In this document: positions 2,142 to 63,999 of the stretch, one piece after another
How the letters are laid out: every line of letters starts with the position of its first letter
Numbering within the stretch: position 1 is the first letter of the stretch
From: a virus
Lineage: Duplodnaviria; Heunggongvirae; Uroviricota; Caudoviricetes
Virus record (IMG/VR): IMGVR_UViG_3300040801_001810
Coordinates: 102,194-166,193 of that record
DNA: 64,000 bases
Strand: one strand, 5' to 3'
The notes under the pieces: generated by a model
What the model saw: only the letters and a program-made list of their open reading frames with translations
Told to the model about the DNA's origin: nothing
The model's database searches: none
Translations under genes and position numbers: made by a program

Positions 2142-4414
2142 TATTGAACCTCATAGTAGACTTTAAAGAAATCTATATCTACAGAACAATTTTTAAATAT
2201 CTGCAAGTAAGTAGAAGATACCGTATCTGCTGTTGTAGTTGAGAGAATAAGTCTAATTTCACTAAATCCTACGCTTAATTCGCTCTTATAGTATAACTTG
2301 AATGTTGGAACAGAAGAGGATAAATCATCTGCTACATATCGTAGAATAAACTCTTTATGTATATTATCAAATGTAATATTATCTGACGAATAGAATGTAT
2401 AGTCCCCACTCTTAATAATTATTCTACCTGACTTCTCTACTGTAAGTGTAAGATATTTATCTAAAGTCGTATCCTGTATTTGAATTAAAGTAGCATTTTG
2501 TTCAGACTTTAGTTTAAATCCTAGATGGAAAAATGTATAGTCTTTAAGAATAGATAGATTATTAATGTAATAGAATGAATCTTGACCAGTTATAATCTTC
2601 TTTCCATAGTAGCTTCCATAGTTAATCTGATATAGAGTTCCAGAACCATTATAAATAAATTGATTCGAGTTGCCTGTTAGATCTAATTCGGTAGCAGTAC
2701 CAGATACAACTGGTTGATCAAAGTTACAATTAACAAGATAGTTTCTAAGATTAGTCGATTCTTGAGGAACAAAGTCGTCTGAATATCCAATATATTGCTC
2801 ATTAGCATTTAAAGAGAAAAAGCTATCTAATAAGCTGGACTTCAACATTAAAGGTATATCAAAATCAATCTTGTATAAATATTTATATGGTCTTGTAGTT
2901 AACCCATCAAACGTAATTATCTTACTCTGTTGATTAGCCTCAATTAAATGAGGATTTCTAGTAAACTCAAAAGGGACTTGTTGTAGATTACCACTGGTTA
3001 CATCTACTGTATATATTGGACTAATGCTTTCATTAGATACAAATCCATTTGATTCCAGAGACGATATATATTTAGATTTATTATGAGACTTATATTTATA
3101 TTCTACCATATACCTAGTTTGAGGATTAGTAATAGATATCTTATTAGTTATATCTCCACTTCCATTTACAAATTGTAATGTACCAGGATCAATCTGGGCA
3201 CCATCATTAATATATTCCCATGATATAGTTTTAAATAATGTCGTTGGTTTTCCTTGAGAGTATTCGCTAAATCCATTTCCACTTGGAACAGAAGTCTCAT
3301 AACCAAGATATATTGGATCAAACATTGTTCCAGAATAGGTACCAGAACTACCTACAAACATTCTATCAGATTTATAGTAATATATTGGTTTACCAGAAGC
3401 TGGTATTTCAGTTGCATTCCCAGATAGATCTAGTATATCTATATCATATAATTTTAGTGTACCACTAATAGGAGTATGTTCTAAATCTAGGTACGCTATA
3501 TTGTAATTACCATATCCATATGGATTATTCTTAGCAGTTCTATAGAAAACCTTTGTCCCATTATCATCATAATAATATGTTCCAGAATAATCAACTACAG
3601 CTACTACATCTCCTGTCTCATTTCTAGTCCATCCATGGTAAGGAGTATAGTGATCGATTGACCATATTATTCCACTATTATCTGTTACCTCTCTATGAAG
3701 AGGGTATAGTCCACTTAAAGTTCTTTCTGTAATAGGATCAAGTACTTCATACTTTCCGTTCTTCTCAAAGCTTTGATCTTGAATCCCAGTAAGGAAACCA
3801 TATCTTCTGTCGAAATCAGAGAATGTTTGGAAGTTAGTATTGACATCTAGTCTATGTGCACTCCACATATTATTTTGATAAGAAGTTACCTGATCATCAT
3901 CAGAAAATATAACAAAGTAACCAGACCCTCTTTGATTAGCTCTAAAGTATTCTAGTCCGATAATACCAGAAACATTGGACCAGCACTGTGTATAAAATCC
4001 ACTAACAAAACTATTGTCTTGGTGATAGCTACCTACATAAGCTCCAGAGTAAATTGGAAATTGATATCGTTTAAGATATCTTACTCTAGTTGGAGATCCA
4101 TTATAAAATTCATCATCATTAGTTACTTTAATATTAATACTAGAATCACCATTTAGATATTGGGTATTAGGTGTACCAGAAACATCTACTTGATATAGTT
4201 CGTAGTCTTTTGATACGTCGAACGTATCTATAAAAGAGTCATTATAAACTTGCTGTGAACGACGATGCGCTTCATCAAATTCAACACCATAAAGCAAATT
4301 AATATATTTAAATCCATTGGACTTTATATCATTAACGATCTTAAAGTTCTCAGGAAAAACAGCTTTTAGAATTCTTTGAGTACTCTTTGCTTGTATCGGT
4401 TTTTTAGTATTCAT
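2141..4414 (-). CDS. Baseplate wedge/fibre-attachment protein with C-terminal LamG-like domain
   Basis: Follows the J-like gene; start probably ATG 4414 (TAATG overlap) rather than 4426; N-terminus resembles gpI/gp7-type wedge helices; C-terminal CNFDQP..DLTGNSN..FFHLGFKLK resembles concanavalin-A/LamG. Confidence 0.5.
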   Translation of the reverse strand: MNTKKPIQAKSTQRILKAVFPENFKIVNDIKSNGFKYINLLYGVEFDEAHRRSQQVYNDSFIDTFDVSKDYELYQVDVSGTPNTQYLNGDSSINIKVTNDDEFYNGSPTRVRYLKRYQFPIYSGAYVGSYHQDNSFVSGFYTQCWSNVSGIIGLEYFRANQRGSGYFVIFSDDDQVTSYQNNMWSAHRLDVNTNFQTFSDFDRRYGFLTGIQDQSFEKNGKYEVLDPITERTLSGLYPLHREVTDNSGIIWSIDHYTPYHGWTRNETGDVVAVVDYSGTYYYDDNGTKVFYRTAKNNPYGYGNYNIAYLDLEHTPISGTLKLYDIDILDLSGNATEIPASGKPIYYYKSDRMFVGSSGTYSGTMFDPIYLGYETSVPSGNGFSEYSQGKPTTLFKTISWEYINDGAQIDPGTLQFVNGSGDITNKISITNPQTRYMVEYKYKSHNKSKYISSLESNGFVSNESISPIYTVDVTSGNLQQVPFEFTRNPHLIEANQQSKIITFDGLTTRPYKYLYKIDFDIPLMLKSSLLDSFFSLNANEQYIGYSDDFVPQESTNLRNYLVNCNFDQPVVSGTATELDLTGNSNQFIYNGSGTLYQINYGSYYGKKIITGQDSFYYINNLSILKDYTFFHLGFKLKSEQNATLIQIQDTTLDKYLTLTVEKSGRIIIKSGDYTFYSSDNITFDNIHKEFILRYVADDLSSSVPTFKLYYKSELSVGFSEIRLILSTTTADTVSSTYLQIFKNCSVDIDFFKVYYEVQ

Positions 4415-28114: not shown

Positions 28115-28414
28115 TTAAAGTTCTTCGATTTCAGTCAATTCAAATCCTGAAACAACCATAACTCTTTCCGAAATAACAGCAGATATTCCTGCATTTTTCT
28201 TTAGTTCTGCTTCGTCATATTCACTGACTACGCAAGATTTAAATACTTCAATGTCATTATCAAAAGTAGTTGGATTCATTGCTTGCTTCATTTGTAGGTC
28301 TAGATATAATTCTCTATTCATATTATGAAAATAATAATCTTTTCCAGCTACAGTTGCTCGGTAAATTTTTCCGTGCTCTTCTTTCCAGGTCGTAATTTGT
28401 TCTTGTGATACCAT
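28115..28414 (-). CDS. Tail assembly chaperone 1
   Basis: 99 aa; ITTWKEEHGKIY..YYF..NRE and GIS.VISERVMVVSGF pattern of myophage tail chaperones; follows the tube paralogues. Confidence 0.7.
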   Translation of the reverse strand: MVSQEQITTWKEEHGKIYRATVAGKDYYFHNMNRELYLDLQMKQAMNPTTFDNDIEVFKSCVVSEYDEAELKKNAGISAVISERVMVVSGFELTEIEEL

Positions 28415-44863: not shown

Positions 44864-45553
44864 TTATTCTTCTTCGTTAACTCTTATTCCAGTCATTCCA
44901 GGACCAAACTCATTTAATTTTTTTCTTATTAATTCAAGAACTTCCTGTCTAGCTCTATTCAAAGGGTTATATCCTTTTTGTTCATAGTCTAGTAGGTCAA
45001 TTAAATTTCTTCTGGCTGCTTTGGTTAGAGGAGCATCATTAACAAATTTACGTAAATTAATGAAGTTTAGATTTTGTAGCTTAGTGTACATTTCTTTATT
45101 TTTTCCAATAAAGACTCTATCGCCATTATCTTTATATCCAAATTCATCTGCAACGCCAGTTACTTCTTTCTTTTTTCCTGGAGGATTTTTAGGATCCGCT
45201 TCAACTAAAATACCAAACTTATAAGCTAGTAATACTCTAGAGAGGTTTTCCTTAGGAATTTTAGTAGTGTCTACATACCATTTAAGATCAGTTTCTTTCT
45301 TTCCAAAACTCACATAGTCTGAATTACCATGATCATCTTTTTCTATTTCAGTAGCAACAGGAACATTAACTTTTTCTCCTGTCATATCTGTGACTTCTAT
45401 CATTTTAAAGGGGCGTCCTGTTAGGACTTTTGTTGAAGCAAATAGTCTTACTCCTGAACAATTATCTCCTTGATCGTCAAACCACATAGATCCTTTTTCT
45501 AATCTTAGATATTTTGGTAATTTAAATTCTTTTGATTCTTTTGATTTAGCCAT
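44864..45553 (-). CDS. Hypothetical head-associated protein
   Basis: 229 aa, directly after the MCP terminator, strong SD. Confidence 0.6.
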   Translation of the reverse strand: MAKSKESKEFKLPKYLRLEKGSMWFDDQGDNCSGVRLFASTKVLTGRPFKMIEVTDMTGEKVNVPVATEIEKDDHGNSDYVSFGKKETDLKWYVDTTKIPKENLSRVLLAYKFGILVEADPKNPPGKKKEVTGVADEFGYKDNGDRVFIGKNKEMYTKLQNLNFINLRKFVNDAPLTKAARRNLIDLLDYEQKGYNPLNRARQEVLELIRKKLNEFGPGMTGIRVNEEE

Positions 45554-57652: not shown

Positions 57653-58237
57653 TTAGTATTTCGTATGGTTAATTGCATGTTTAGATGCAAATAGAGCGGG
57701 ATTTCTTTCTGTAGTGGTTCTAACAGAAGTATGAAATCCTTTTCTAACAGTAGAATAGTAAGGAGTGATTGTCTTTGATGCGGTTTTACTTAAATTAACT
57801 GGAGATCCAAAATCAGTCATTGATTCTGTAATTAAATCATATCCTCGTTCATACTCTTTAGGAATAGCTGGTGATGGGGTAAATCCAGACATAGCCTTTC
57901 CAGCTAGGTTAAATACAAATGAGGCACCAAGAGCAAATGCTCCTCTTCGTGCCCATTTATTTCCAGCAATCTTTTGTAGAACTCTTCCAGCTTTGGATCC
58001 AGATAATAATAAATTAGTTTTATTAGATATCTTTGTAACAGATTCATTAATTTTTAATGCAGGTTTACCATTTCTTTTTTGCTTTAGTCGTTGTGTCTTG
58101 CTATCAATACGTTCATTAGGTCTCTGAGTCACATTATTAAGCATTGACTCTCTAGCAAATAGATGTCTAGTGTGTCCTGTAATAAAGTTTTGTGCTTTAT
58201 TATAAAAATTATGAATTAATTTAGTCTCCATCAACAT
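57653..58237 (-). CDS. Basic putative ejection/core protein
   Basis: 194 aa; Lys/Arg-rich with GAFALGASFVFNLAG segment. Confidence 0.5.
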   Translation of the reverse strand: MLMETKLIHNFYNKAQNFITGHTRHLFARESMLNNVTQRPNERIDSKTQRLKQKRNGKPALKINESVTKISNKTNLLLSGSKAGRVLQKIAGNKWARRGAFALGASFVFNLAGKAMSGFTPSPAIPKEYERGYDLITESMTDFGSPVNLSKTASKTITPYYSTVRKGFHTSVRTTTERNPALFASKHAINHTKY

Positions 58238-58883
58238 TAGCCGCCGCTTGTCTTAACATAGCTTCAAGAGTACTTGCATCAGCATTCATACCGTATTTCT
58301 TTTTAGCTCTTCTAGAAGCCGCAAAAGCATCAATAATACTATGCTTTAATTTCTTTAATTCTATCTTCATTTCAAGTGTTGGTGAAATTTCTTCTCTTGA
58401 AACAGTTGCTTGACCAACTTTTTGTTCTACTATTTGTACTAATTTCCCATCTCTTAGTTTTCCAGAAGCACGCATATCAAGTATCTTGGTTTCAATTAGA
58501 TCCCATAACATTTCCATTTCAATTGGATCATTTCTATCTATATCCAGAGAAGTTATTACATCAAGTTCCATCTCCATAATAATTTTCTTTTCAACAGGAC
58601 AAGAATATCCAAATGGAGCTAGGTCACTTCTATATAGTATACATGCGTCTTTAAGTTCACAACTCTGAGAACAAGTCATTAGCATTGTATTAACTGTAGC
58701 AGTACTAGTTGTATCTTTAAAAAATTTTGCTATTTTAAGTAATTTACTTTTATTATTTAATAAATTTTTAGCAGCCTCTTCTGGATATATTTGAATTAAT
58801 GCTTCTAATTCTGGATGATCTTTTTTCATTATTGCTAGGTCGTGCTCTTCTGTATGAACCCGCAAATTTACAGCATTGGACAT
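58221..58883 (-). CDS. Candidate terminase small subunit with a Cys4 cluster
   Basis: 220 aa; TCSQSC..DAC..SCPVE; helical; upstream of TerL; GAGGAGG SD. Confidence 0.4.
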   Translation of the reverse strand: MSNAVNLRVHTEEHDLAIMKKDHPELEALIQIYPEEAAKNLLNNKSKLLKIAKFFKDTTSTATVNTMLMTCSQSCELKDACILYRSDLAPFGYSCPVEKKIIMEMELDVITSLDIDRNDPIEMEMLWDLIETKILDMRASGKLRDGKLVQIVEQKVGQATVSREEISPTLEMKIELKKLKHSIIDAFAASRRAKKKYGMNADASTLEAMLRQAAANVDGD

Positions 58884-58916
58884 AAAACCTCCTCGTTTAG
58901 TTCCAAAGTCTTAAGC

Positions 58917-60069: not shown

Positions 60070-60570
60070 TTAAACTATTATTCTTTCTTTTTCTACCTTA
60101 GTTATTACATAATCGTCAAACATTGGTTCGTCGTATTTAAAAATAATAACTTTAGTCTTATTTTTTTTAGCTAGTTTAAGTTTTAATCTATCTAATCTTT
60201 TTCTTTGGTTAAAGATTTTCTTAGTGCGTTGAAAAAATGGAGTGTGCTCATAGTGTTGTTGTCCATTATATTCAATTGCTAGATTAAGACTTTTAATGTA
60301 TATATCAAATTCTAATAGTACATCTTTATTGCTAACGGCCCAAATAGGATGATATCCTGTAACTACATTAGTATATCCATAATAGTTCTCTATAATTTTT
60401 GTTAATCTAATCTCGTTTTTATGGTAATCATTTTGAGTATATCTAGATCCTGTTAGTCTTTTTTTAAGTCGAAATCCTTGAATTGATGAGTCCCACATGT
60501 ATTTTTCGGCATGTGATTTACATAGACCATCTAATCCAGGTCTTTTACAAATGTAACATATTGATCTCAT
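60070..60570 (-). CDS. Zn-finger plus Vsr/DUF559-like PD-(D/E)XK endonuclease
   Basis: CYIC..LCKSH then LEFDIYIKSLNLAIEYNGQQHY; start more likely ATG 60570 (or 60588) than the track GTG at 60669, which runs through a terminator. Confidence 0.7.
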   Translation of the reverse strand: MRSICYICKRPGLDGLCKSHAEKYMWDSSIQGFRLKKRLTGSRYTQNDYHKNEIRLTKIIENYYGYTNVVTGYHPIWAVSNKDVLLEFDIYIKSLNLAIEYNGQQHYEHTPFFQRTKKIFNQRKRLDRLKLKLAKKNKTKVIIFKYDEPMFDDYVITKVEKERIIV

Positions 60571-60592
60571 AGAATTAGTATAAGTCATAAAC

Positions 60593-60626
60593 AAAAAAAT
60601 AAGTGCCCAGAAGAACTCTGAGCACT
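60593..60626 (-). terminator. Intrinsic terminator closing the lipase/small-ORF unit
   Basis: Minus strand AGTGCTCAGA-GTTCT-TCTGGGCACT followed by TATTTTTTT. Confidence 0.8.
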
Positions 60627-60715
60627 CGAGGAGAAAGGAGGTGCGGAAGGAGGAGGTTTTATGTACCACTGTGCTGGTTTCCCAGCACCCTCATAAATAG
60701 TATGAGGCATCCTAA
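60593..60715 (-). ncRNA. Candidate structured small RNA / 3' UTR element with tandem anti-Shine-Dalgarno tracts
   Basis: Two abutting 7 bp hairpins (60689-60707; 60671-60688 with GAAA loop), C/U tract ACCUCCUCCUUCCGCACCUCCUUUCUCCUC (60657-60628), then terminator. Confidence 0.5.
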
Positions 60716-60731
60716 ACTTTGCTGATCACTT

Positions 60732-60875
60732 TTATGCTGATGTTATTACAATTTCTTGAGACAGCTTTCTAGGATCAATTTTTCTCTTAGGCAGGAGGGT
60801 TTGGTCCTTAGGAACTTTTACCTTTCCTTTAGTACCAAGTCCAGTAATTTTGTTTTTAAAAGTAGTAATTTTCAT
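60732..60875 (-). CDS. 47 aa basic microprotein (not in ORF track)
   Basis: MKITTFKNKITGLGTKGKVKVPKDQTLLPKRKIDPRKLSQEIVITSA; TAATG overlap with the second of two tandem TAA codons after the upstream ORF. Confidence 0.55.
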   Translation of the reverse strand: MKITTFKNKITGLGTKGKVKVPKDQTLLPKRKIDPRKLSQEIVITSA

Positions 60876-60877
60876 TA

Positions 60878-60991
60878 TTATTTCTTCTTTTTCTTTTTAC
60901 ACTTGTCATTTGTAGTGACAACCGTGGTTTTCTTTGGATCGTGAGATTTACCACCAATTAGACCACCAAGACTAGGTATACTTTTAGCCAT
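60878..60991 (-). CDS. 37 aa basic microprotein (not in ORF track)
   Basis: MAKSIPSLGGLIGGKSHDPKKTTVVTTNDKCKKKKKK; GGAGGA SD 5 nt upstream. Confidence 0.65.
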   Translation of the reverse strand: MAKSIPSLGGLIGGKSHDPKKTTVVTTNDKCKKKKKK

Positions 60992-62300: not shown

Positions 62301-62875
62301 TATTCTGTTCCTGTGTGTCCAAATCCACCACCTCGATCTTCATCATATGGTTCTGGTAGTGAAGAAACGATTTTAATTTCAGGAAGAGCGACAGGAGCTA
62401 CTATTAATTGAGCTATTCTTGTATCTAGTGTTATAACTTGTTCTTTTCTAGACAAATTAACAACTATGATTCCGATCTCGTGTCTATATCCTTCATCTAT
62501 GGTTCCTGGAGTATTAATAACAGTAAGACCGTTCTTAAGAGCTAGGCCGCTTCTAGGTCTTGCTTGTATTTCATATCCAGCACCACAAGTAGCTTTAATA
62601 CCTGTACCAATTAAAACTCGTTCCAAATACGTAAGAGTAATAGTCTTATCTCTTACAAAGTTAGCTAGAAGTTTATCTTCTAATACTCGTTCTCCGTTAC
62701 CACCAAAATTTTGGTATAACTTCTTAAATGAATGAGCATAGACATCAAAACCACTATCTGTCGGATTACTTTTAACTGGAGCTTTAGCATCTGGTGCTAA
62801 AAGTTCCACATATAAGGTCATTGGTACTGTACCCACCTTTGTTACGTTATTTCCTTCTGATTTATTCTCTGACAT
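62300..62875 (-). CDS. dut: Trimeric dUTPase
   Basis: 191 aa; SGFDV, QARPRSGLA, GTIDEGYR.EIGII, RIAQL, RGGGFGHTG motifs. Confidence 0.95.
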   Translation of the reverse strand: MSENKSEGNNVTKVGTVPMTLYVELLAPDAKAPVKSNPTDSGFDVYAHSFKKLYQNFGGNGERVLEDKLLANFVRDKTITLTYLERVLIGTGIKATCGAGYEIQARPRSGLALKNGLTVINTPGTIDEGYRHEIGIIVVNLSRKEQVITLDTRIAQLIVAPVALPEIKIVSSLPEPYDEDRGGGFGHTGTE

Positions 62876-62886
62876 TTCTCTCTCCT

Positions 62887-63999
62887 CTATAATTTAGTTA
62901 CTTCACATGCTCCGCCTGAGCACGCACTTTGGTCTTTAAAATTAGTAGCATCATGATCTTCAACTACTTTAGTTAAGTCAATATTTCTTACCTTTGATAG
63001 CAATTCGCTATATTCTTCTTCTGTACAATCAGTAAAAGGCATTTGTGTATATGATCCTCCATTATAAGGGAACACCGCTATTCCATTATAACAGTCTCTA
63101 TTTTGCCACATCCAATCACCAACTTGACTCCATTCCTCTGGCTTAATACTAACAGTTATGCTAACATTATGAGTATTTTGACCATCTATATGGCCAGGTT
63201 TAATCCATTTCTCATGAAAATACTTACCACGTTCTAGTAGGTCAATAGCAGACTCTGTTCTTAGTATAGCTCCTTCTGGAGCTTTAATTGGTATTGAAAT
63301 TACTGCTTGAAGATCAGGTTTTAGTACATCGTCTTCTATTAAATCAGGTATTGCTCTCTTTAGATAATTATAAATAGGCTCGTTCTTACCAACCTTCATT
63401 CTTCTAATAAAATGATCCCAATGCCAAGCATGAATTCCGCTTGAGGTACCTAATACACAACTAGCTGTCCCTTCTGGCTTAATACAAGTAACTCTGATAG
63501 CAGGTTTAATTCCAAGTAACTTAGCCACTCTAATATTTTCATCTACTGCGCACTTAGCTGCTTCTTCAAGATTATATTTTAATACTGCACCACTAGCTAT
63601 ACCCGTCATGCTTACACCTAGTAATGGTTCTTTCTTACTATTGATCTCCCATTCATCTCTTAGATAATGAAAGTCGGTGTAGCTTGATTGAAGTGTCCCA
63701 ATAAAAGACGCCGCTCTAACTCGTTCGTTTAGATCTTCTTGTGATTCAATATTACTTACGTTGACAGTTGTTAAGTTACAGAACTGCATAGACTTAAGTG
63801 CGATTTCACAGCACGGATTACATCCATAGTCCTTATCGTTAGTGAAATATATACCAGGTTCTCCGCTTCCACTAGCTTCTATTTTTTCCCAGAATTTTCT
63901 GAATTGCTTTTCTCTGATTTTGTTTCTGAGGATAACTGCTGAATTATTTGCTCTAGCAAGATGAGGCTGTGTTTCCCACCAATTACCATACTTGCAAGT
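62887..63999 (-). CDS. nrdJ: Class II (adenosylcobalamin) ribonucleotide reductase, monomeric type; 5' part outside window
   Basis: Frame is open from the window edge: RANNSAV..GEPG..GCNPCCEI, then FCNL, TCIKPEGT..GTSSGIH, C-terminal CSGGACEV. Confidence 0.9.
   Translation of the reverse strand, partial: TCKYGNWWETQPHLARANNSAVILRNKIREKQFRKFWEKIEASGSGEPGIYFTNDKDYGCNPCCEIALKSMQFCNLTTVNVSNIESQEDLNERVRAASFIGTLQSSYTDFHYLRDEWEINSKKEPLLGVSMTGIASGAVLKYNLEEAAKCAVDENIRVAKLLGIKPAIRVTCIKPEGTASCVLGTSSGIHAWHWDHFIRRMKVGKNEPIYNYLKRAIPDLIEDDVLKPDLQAVISIPIKAPEGAILRTESAIDLLERGKYFHEKWIKPGHIDGQNTHNVSITVSIKPEEWSQVGDWMWQNRDCYNGIAVFPYNGGSYTQMPFTDCTEEEYSELLSKVRNIDLTKVVEDHDATNFKDQSACSGGACEVTKL

Follow-up and report, generated by a model that had tools for sequence, protein, structure and literature searches.

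Most characterized phage antisense RNAs control lysogeny or host genes, and RsaE/RoxS, RNAIII, and LhrC pair with G-rich mRNA sites through C-rich single-stranded stretches. The described phage RNAs closest to the one reported here are the c4 RNA of P1/P7, which is trans-acting and 77 nt long, and the sar RNA of P22; both are short and block translation at the RBS of a phage mRNA, where pairing across the SD sequence and the AUG blocks initiation (PMC12197685). PAK_P4as15, a cis-encoded phage RNA of ~550 nt, is proposed to repress the translation of a late gene (endolysin) (PMC12197685). The 6C sRNA of Actinobacteria also pairs with G-rich mRNA sites through single-stranded C-rich stretches, located in two hairpin loops, and it acts on many host targets without a chaperone (PMC6486639). 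The Cuckoo/alpha-r14/RSs0680 (CcsR) RNAs are chromosomal alphaproteobacterial stress RNAs that come in modular length variants of 2 to 4 adjacent hairpins with an anti-SD CCUCCUCCC motif in each loop, and RSs0680 is located behind a small ORF (PMC4615179). In the open-access literature, we found no trans-acting RNA described as adjusting the expression of terminase or assembly genes.

The DNA analyzed here (the window) is a 64,000-nt part of a complete phage record of 230,193 bp with direct terminal repeats. All of its long genes, including those for TerL, the portal, and the major capsid protein, are on the minus strand, and the TerL protein is only distantly related to those of the nearest named phages (25 to 31% identity to Moorella phage MTATph1 and Bacillus phage 0305phi8-36). 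Between a lipase-dUTPase unit, whose end it forms, and a block of nuclease, TerS-like, and TerL genes, the window contains a predicted small RNA of ~100 nt (positions 60593 to 60692, minus strand; 5' end placed to ±2 nt), present in one copy in its genome. It has two pyrimidine-rich modules, a 15-nt 5' seed (60650 to 60664, minus) that is antisense to the SD sequence, UUUU spacer, and AUG of a 220-aa gene, and a 3' core (60628 to 60650, minus) that resembles the 3' tail of 16S rRNA. The reading that we favor, with a probability of about 0.68, is that this is a late trans-acting antisense RNA that damps the translation of the TerS-like 220-aa protein and perhaps of two other assembly genes.

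The predicted RNA resembles c4 and sar as a short phage-encoded RNA that would pair around the RBS of a phage mRNA and block its translation, but it has no sequence or Rfam match to them. Furthermore, c4 and sar control antirepressors in temperate immunity regions, whereas the RNA described here has a late-type promoter and predicted assembly and packaging targets, and its seed lies between hairpins and is accompanied by a second anti-SD module. No immunity region with an antirepressor or an icd/kil target, as would be expected for a P1/P7 c4 or P4 CI immunity RNA, is found at the locus. The CCUCCUCCC motif of the Cuckoo RNAs is present exactly in five relatives (L024, L028, L029, L030, and L036), is one base off in the window, and is absent from forms that lack the seed. 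This RNA family likewise has modular length variants and lies behind a small ORF, but the motif occurs once, in an unpaired linker, and the hairpin loops are GAAA-type and UUCU. Its single-stranded C-rich sequence is similar to that of 6C, although 6C is neither homologous nor phage encoded. Unlike PAK_P4as15, it is encoded kilobases from its predicted target. It is a single unit without the tandem pseudoknot repeats of type III toxin-antitoxin (ToxIN-like) systems, and the gene downstream encodes a protein with a Vsr-like fold, is preceded by a promoter box of its own, and in L015, L028, L031, and L032 has insertions between it and the RNA. Based on these comparisons, its predicted mode of action is that of c4/sar and of sRNAs with C-rich seeds (6C, cuckoo), and it belongs to none of those families. 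At the motif level, it has the attributes of a trans-encoded RBS-blocking sRNA, which are its own promoter, an intrinsic terminator, the lack of a conserved ORF, and an accessible seed that is complementary to a target start site and conserved alongside it.

The first-pass annotation described two hairpins, an unpaired tract, and a terminator on the minus strand, and proposed a structured noncoding RNA. Each of these elements is present, and the fold of the region is nonrandom (z = -3.45 on the minus strand, equaled by none of 200 shuffles, and z = -2.77 on the plus strand). However, the first hairpin is probably promoter DNA rather than RNA, because the palindrome that encodes it (60707 to 60689, minus), which is not itself conserved, encloses a conserved -10-like box, and because it folds at -5 kcal/mol or lower in only 5 of 17 copies. 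This box, CATACT (60699 to 60704, minus), contains invariant A, T, T, and A alignment columns, and a -35-like TGATCA box (60723 to 60728, minus) recurs across copies. The combination of a TGATCA-like box (within one mismatch), an 18-nt spacer, and a YATACT-like box is detected by script in 11 of 17 copies, and in 13 of 17 after L006 and L024 are reregistered by eye. A second copy of the TGATCA-N18-CATACT motif is located upstream of the major capsid gene (47200 to 47165, minus), which suggests that the RNA is expressed late. Transcription would probably start near 60692 and end at 60593. The second hairpin (60671 to 60688, minus), which becomes the 5' hairpin of the RNA, has a GAAA loop and is predicted in nearly all promoter-bearing copies; its stem sequence differs in each copy, and its loops are often GAAA, GCAA, or UUAC(G). 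A long terminator hairpin precedes a U-run in every copy (60593 to 60627, minus, with the hairpin itself at 60627 to 60601), and its stem sequence varies while its UUCU loop motif is conserved. Covariation of these hairpins was judged from per-sequence folds rather than from pair counts, and RNAalifold gave no consensus fold on a MAFFT alignment in which the stems vary in length and are misaligned. A 41-codon frame on the minus strand starts upstream of the -10 box, and the RNA has no conserved ORF.

Searches of Rfam 15 (C4, ar14/cuckoo, 6C, and RsaE included) with the window and three homologue loci gave no hit, and raising the limit to an E value of 10 gave a single unrelated weak match outside the RNA element. 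ARAGORN detected no tRNA, blastn against named phages returned nothing relevant to the RNA element, an exact search for the GAAA-hairpin pattern matched three unrelated contexts, and exact-motif scans of viral contigs found zero additional loci of the family. Homologues of the RNA element are found in related phages at 19 syntenic loci, which we gathered via TerL and an upstream 154-aa gene from among 85 homologous loci and whose neighboring proteins are ~45 to 60% identical. The RNA occurs in three forms. Long forms (the window and 9 relatives) combine the promoter motif and 5' hairpin with the seed, core, and terminator; seven copies are short forms that have no seed; and the 3 minimal forms consist of the pyrimidine tract and terminator only, following a stop codon. 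When the comparison is limited to loci that contain the target gene, the long forms cluster in one supported group that includes one seedless form. Derivation from a 3' UTR, as proposed earlier, is not required, since the RNA has a conserved promoter-like motif to itself, and only the three minimal relatives consist of tract and terminator behind a stop codon. We regard the predicted RNAs as a real, undescribed sRNA family of large uncultured phages.

The target site was found as an opposite-strand match in a BLAST search of the RNA element against its own genome. The seed 15-mer, which is predicted to be largely unpaired in the folded RNA and is found in 10 copies of one group, is the perfect complement of positions 58880 to 58894 (minus), which are the SD sequence, spacer, and start codon of the 220-aa gene (58221 to 58883, minus). 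This match is unique in 230 kb; the 15-mer has two copies within the window and none in 100 shuffles, and even its 12-nt core occurs in the genome only in the RNA and at the 220-aa gene start. Shuffled RNAs pair over at least 15 nt with any start site in 16 of 20,000 cases (p of about 0.001), or in 11 of 20,000 when CCUCC is held fixed. With the seed as probe, the 220-aa gene ranks 1 of 302 start sites in this genome (z = -5.6), and its orthologue ranks 1 of 265 in a second, 95%-complete genome (z = -3.7). The 220-aa gene is still first when the spacer and AUG alone are the probe, whereas a generic 16S tail ranks it 11th.

The complementarity was also compared among relatives. Within the fetched loci, for which region limits were set by hand and gene starts were called by a simple script, the target is the top-ranked gene for 8 of 9 seed-bearing RNAs (counting that of the window) and comes second for the remaining one, while for the 7 seedless RNAs it ranks from 2 to 13. 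Cognate seed-site pairs are stronger than noncognate pairs (permutation p = 0.0006 for 8 loci and 0.0001 when L016 is added), in a permutation that treats the loci as independent even though some are related. The same comparison for seedless forms gives a p value of 0.15; these forms show no pairing specific to the 220-aa gene, so the seed-target function is not family-wide. In L006, the seed and target site have shifted together to the AAGGGAGG register; in L035 and L028, three As in the seed face a 3-nt spacer in the target; and in L028, the pairing is extended 8 bp upstream. L004 has a target site identical to that of the window, and its phage is predicted to carry the long seed. Once the cost of opening both RNAs is included, seed-target pairing has a net energy between -11 and -15 kcal/mol, and the cognate duplexes in L009, L029, L030, and L036 require bulges or mismatches. 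L016 has a diverged seed, and across its 93-kb contig the TerS-like gene ranks only 27 of 121, with the two other candidate targets (described below) at ranks 1 and 2. In G001, the seed match of an unrelated gene is just as long (-22.9 kcal/mol). For a predicted sRNA target, covariation with the seed across divergent phages is a rare kind of evidence, and the covarying loci are natural pairs that are ready for reporter testing.

Other readings of the same complementarity can be weighed against these data. The seed lies upstream of its target on the same strand, and the RNA element also ends the dUTPase-lipase unit, so the tract could pair with the downstream start site within one read-through transcript as a long-range cis-acting switch; a strong terminator and a second promoter between the two sites, a distance that varies from ~1.5 to 5.9 kb among phages, and additional candidate targets 15 and 32 kb away make this quite improbable. 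It is still harder to accept that the feature acts as DNA or arises by chance, as an inverted repeat (a recombination or protein-binding site) flanking a 1.75-kb segment or as a plain terminator with a pyrimidine-rich spacer. The two 15-mers do form a perfect inverted repeat in the window, and three relatives have nothing beyond tract and terminator, but the repeat is positioned exactly on the SD sequence and AUG, the segment is inverted in none of the loci seen, and the match in relatives is maintained despite G-U-type differences and bulges, as is expected of pairing between RNAs. On the plus strand, a perfect SD-spacer-ATG sequence (60652 to 60663) can be read as the opening of a functional mini-ORF. 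This is the least credible of the explanations, since the ORF has 1 to 19 codons with no sequence conservation past the seed, its ATG is missing in L016 and L030, and the conserved promoter and terminator belong to the minus strand.

The first-pass annotation proposed three anti-SD tracts that mimic the 16S rRNA tail, with a 12-nt match that lies in the 3' core. Three CCUCC pentamers are indeed present at 60656, 60653, and 60641 within the C/U tract (60657 to 60628, minus), two of them overlapping, and the 12-nt match (60643 to 60632, minus) occurs once in the window and corresponds to the 3' terminus of a genuine 16S-type tail motif, present in 16 of 151 genomes of one phylum, although this tail may not be that of the host. 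If the RNA were a general mimic of the tail, it would bind many strong SD sequences, host or phage, and shut down or reprioritize translation while sparing leaderless mRNAs such as that of the nuclease. In keeping with this, the core is the best-conserved part of the RNA and persists in seedless forms, the exact 12-nt match is kept in 6 divergent phages, the gene just downstream looks leaderless, and no perfect complement of at least 10 nt to the core exists in the phage genome. However, the 12-mer is changed in 14 of 20 copies (a 9-mer is kept in 8 of 20, and UUUCUCCUC in 11 of 20), the phage's late genes themselves use GGAGG SD sequences and would be hit, and the strongest signal is gene specific and lies outside the 12-mer. 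As an explanation of the whole RNA, general mimicry is unlikely. It can coexist with the seed explanation as the task of the 3' core, and this is what we retain of the mimicry claim; likewise, the exposed anti-SD tract probably blocks RBSs, as was proposed, but through a gene-specific 15-nt seed in the first place and not by global shutoff. A further suggestion is that the RNA is a decoy or sponge for a protein that recognizes the 16S 3' end or C/U-rich RNA (such as a MazF-type defense RNase, Rho, or an RNA chaperone). MazF-mt11 cleaves CACCU just before the 16S anti-SD sequence (PMC12274833), and the CACCU in the core is largely unpaired, but it is retained in only ~8 of 20 copies and a decoy leaves the covariation with a phage start site unexplained, so we consider this reading highly improbable.

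Among ~15 gene groups, the dUTPase start site gives the most consistent pairing with the 3' core (mean of -15.4 kcal/mol; cognate p of 0.036, uncorrected for the number of groups), and we did not accept it as a partner. The dUTPase SD sequence (62875 to 62900, minus), which pairs with the 3' end of the core, is an unusually uniform AGGAGAA type in relatives. There is, in addition, complementarity between the core (60649 to 60638, minus) and the 3' strand of helix 45 in 16S rRNA over 8 perfect nt plus 2 after a bulge, at -18 kcal/mol for a naked duplex that ignores the helix and its proteins; this was noticed post hoc and is probably chance.

The 220-aa protein, encoded four genes upstream of TerL, is conserved and has four invariant cysteines. 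Its homologue in 0305phi8-36, gp112 (hhalign probability of 96.6%, E value of 5e-10), is likewise encoded a few small genes upstream of TerL. Weak leads to YonG_N/C (0.81 to 0.85) and Terminase_4 (TM of 0.36/0.47) come from the atlas and another weak lead from BFVD, with a low-confidence structure model and no TerS hit in Pfam or PHROG. Based on position and weak similarity, we lean toward identifying it as a small terminase (YonG/TerS-like). In L011 (positions 2290 to 3528), the TerS-like protein has 412 aa, with a ~170-aa insertion, possibly an intein, between its two conserved halves. When three phage genomes are searched with their own seeds, a 229-aa gene directly after the major capsid gene (44864 to 45553, minus; ranks 3, 10, and 1) and a 99-aa gene two genes upstream of a 2027-aa gene (28115 to 28414, minus; ranks 13, 6, and 2) are the candidate second and third targets. 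From its position, the 99-aa protein is a probable tail assembly chaperone. The three candidates are set apart from 104 other orthologues across these genomes (summed z of -9.8, -8.8, and -7.5, with the next at -3.8), and their start sites share the pattern of SD sequence, U-rich spacer, and AUG. The unrelated gene of G001, the phage that carries L006, encodes 450 aa on the opposite strand; its 15-nt match to the seed of this phage (G001:C1:212057; L012:585, minus) makes it a possible lineage-specific extra target.

In the mechanism that we propose, an independent small-RNA gene would be transcribed from its own promoter of the capsid-gene type, probably late in infection. The 5' hairpin would protect the RNA, the C/U tract would remain unpaired, and the terminator would end the transcript. 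The seed would pair in trans with the TerS-like mRNA, which is made 1.7 kb downstream, over its SD sequence, spacer, and AUG, so that 30S loading is blocked and the TerS-like protein is held down or delayed. Weaker pairing is also probable at the similar start sites of the post-capsid gene and the probable tail chaperone gene, and the 3' core would be a broader anti-SD module for further phage or host mRNAs. With the RNA and target mRNA both presumably late, the RNA may set a threshold that keeps three assembly proteins low or delayed. Should this mechanism hold, large phages would have an additional, RNA-based level of control over DNA packaging and virion assembly. A more elaborate and doubtful version is that the two modules together set the stoichiometry of virion assembly: the seed, gained by one group, would repress a packaging subunit and two assembly genes, and the older 16S-tail-like core would silence strong-SD (host) mRNAs while sparing leaderless late phage mRNAs. 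The mRNA of the downstream nuclease looks leaderless and would thus escape an anti-SD RNA.

This nuclease (60070 to 60570, minus) and two small lysine-rich ORFs flank the RNA. It is a Vsr-like/EDxHD PD-(D/E)xK nuclease with a Zn-binding N terminus, based on PHROG nuclease matches down to an E value of 3e-14 and a structure model (pLDDT of 89.6) that Foldseek matches weakly to Vsr (1cw0) and I-Bth0305I (3r3p). A second box, TATACT (60577 to 60582, minus), is likely to be the promoter from which the downstream operon is transcribed as a leaderless mRNA; the gap between the box and the nuclease ATG is exactly 6 nt in 8 of 12 loci (9 if the second box of L029 is counted). From this arrangement (60582 to 60570, minus), the nuclease gene appears to be leaderless, and its true start is probably 60570 rather than that of the longer ORFs from 60669 or 60588. 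We dropped the idea that it is a mobile homing endonuclease or part of an intron because its synteny is kept in relatives across the family and it interrupts no gene. On the 5' side of the RNA, very small lysine-rich ORFs (60878 to 60991 and 60732 to 60875, minus, in the window) are present in nearly all relatives, with a CKxKxKKK-like motif in several, and could encode nucleic-acid-binding peptides. One 93-kb relative (L027) is filed in a "Ca. Omnitrophota" MAG, which is either a hint to the host or a binning error. Seedless relatives have a second hairpin-terminator motif with CTCACCT, sometimes twice, flanking inserted opposite-strand genes (L032:7630-7650, L032:8040-8070, L031:7990-8030, L015:3595-3625, and L021:6725-6760), and the inserted genes beside these motifs open with a conserved SD block that is read antisense.
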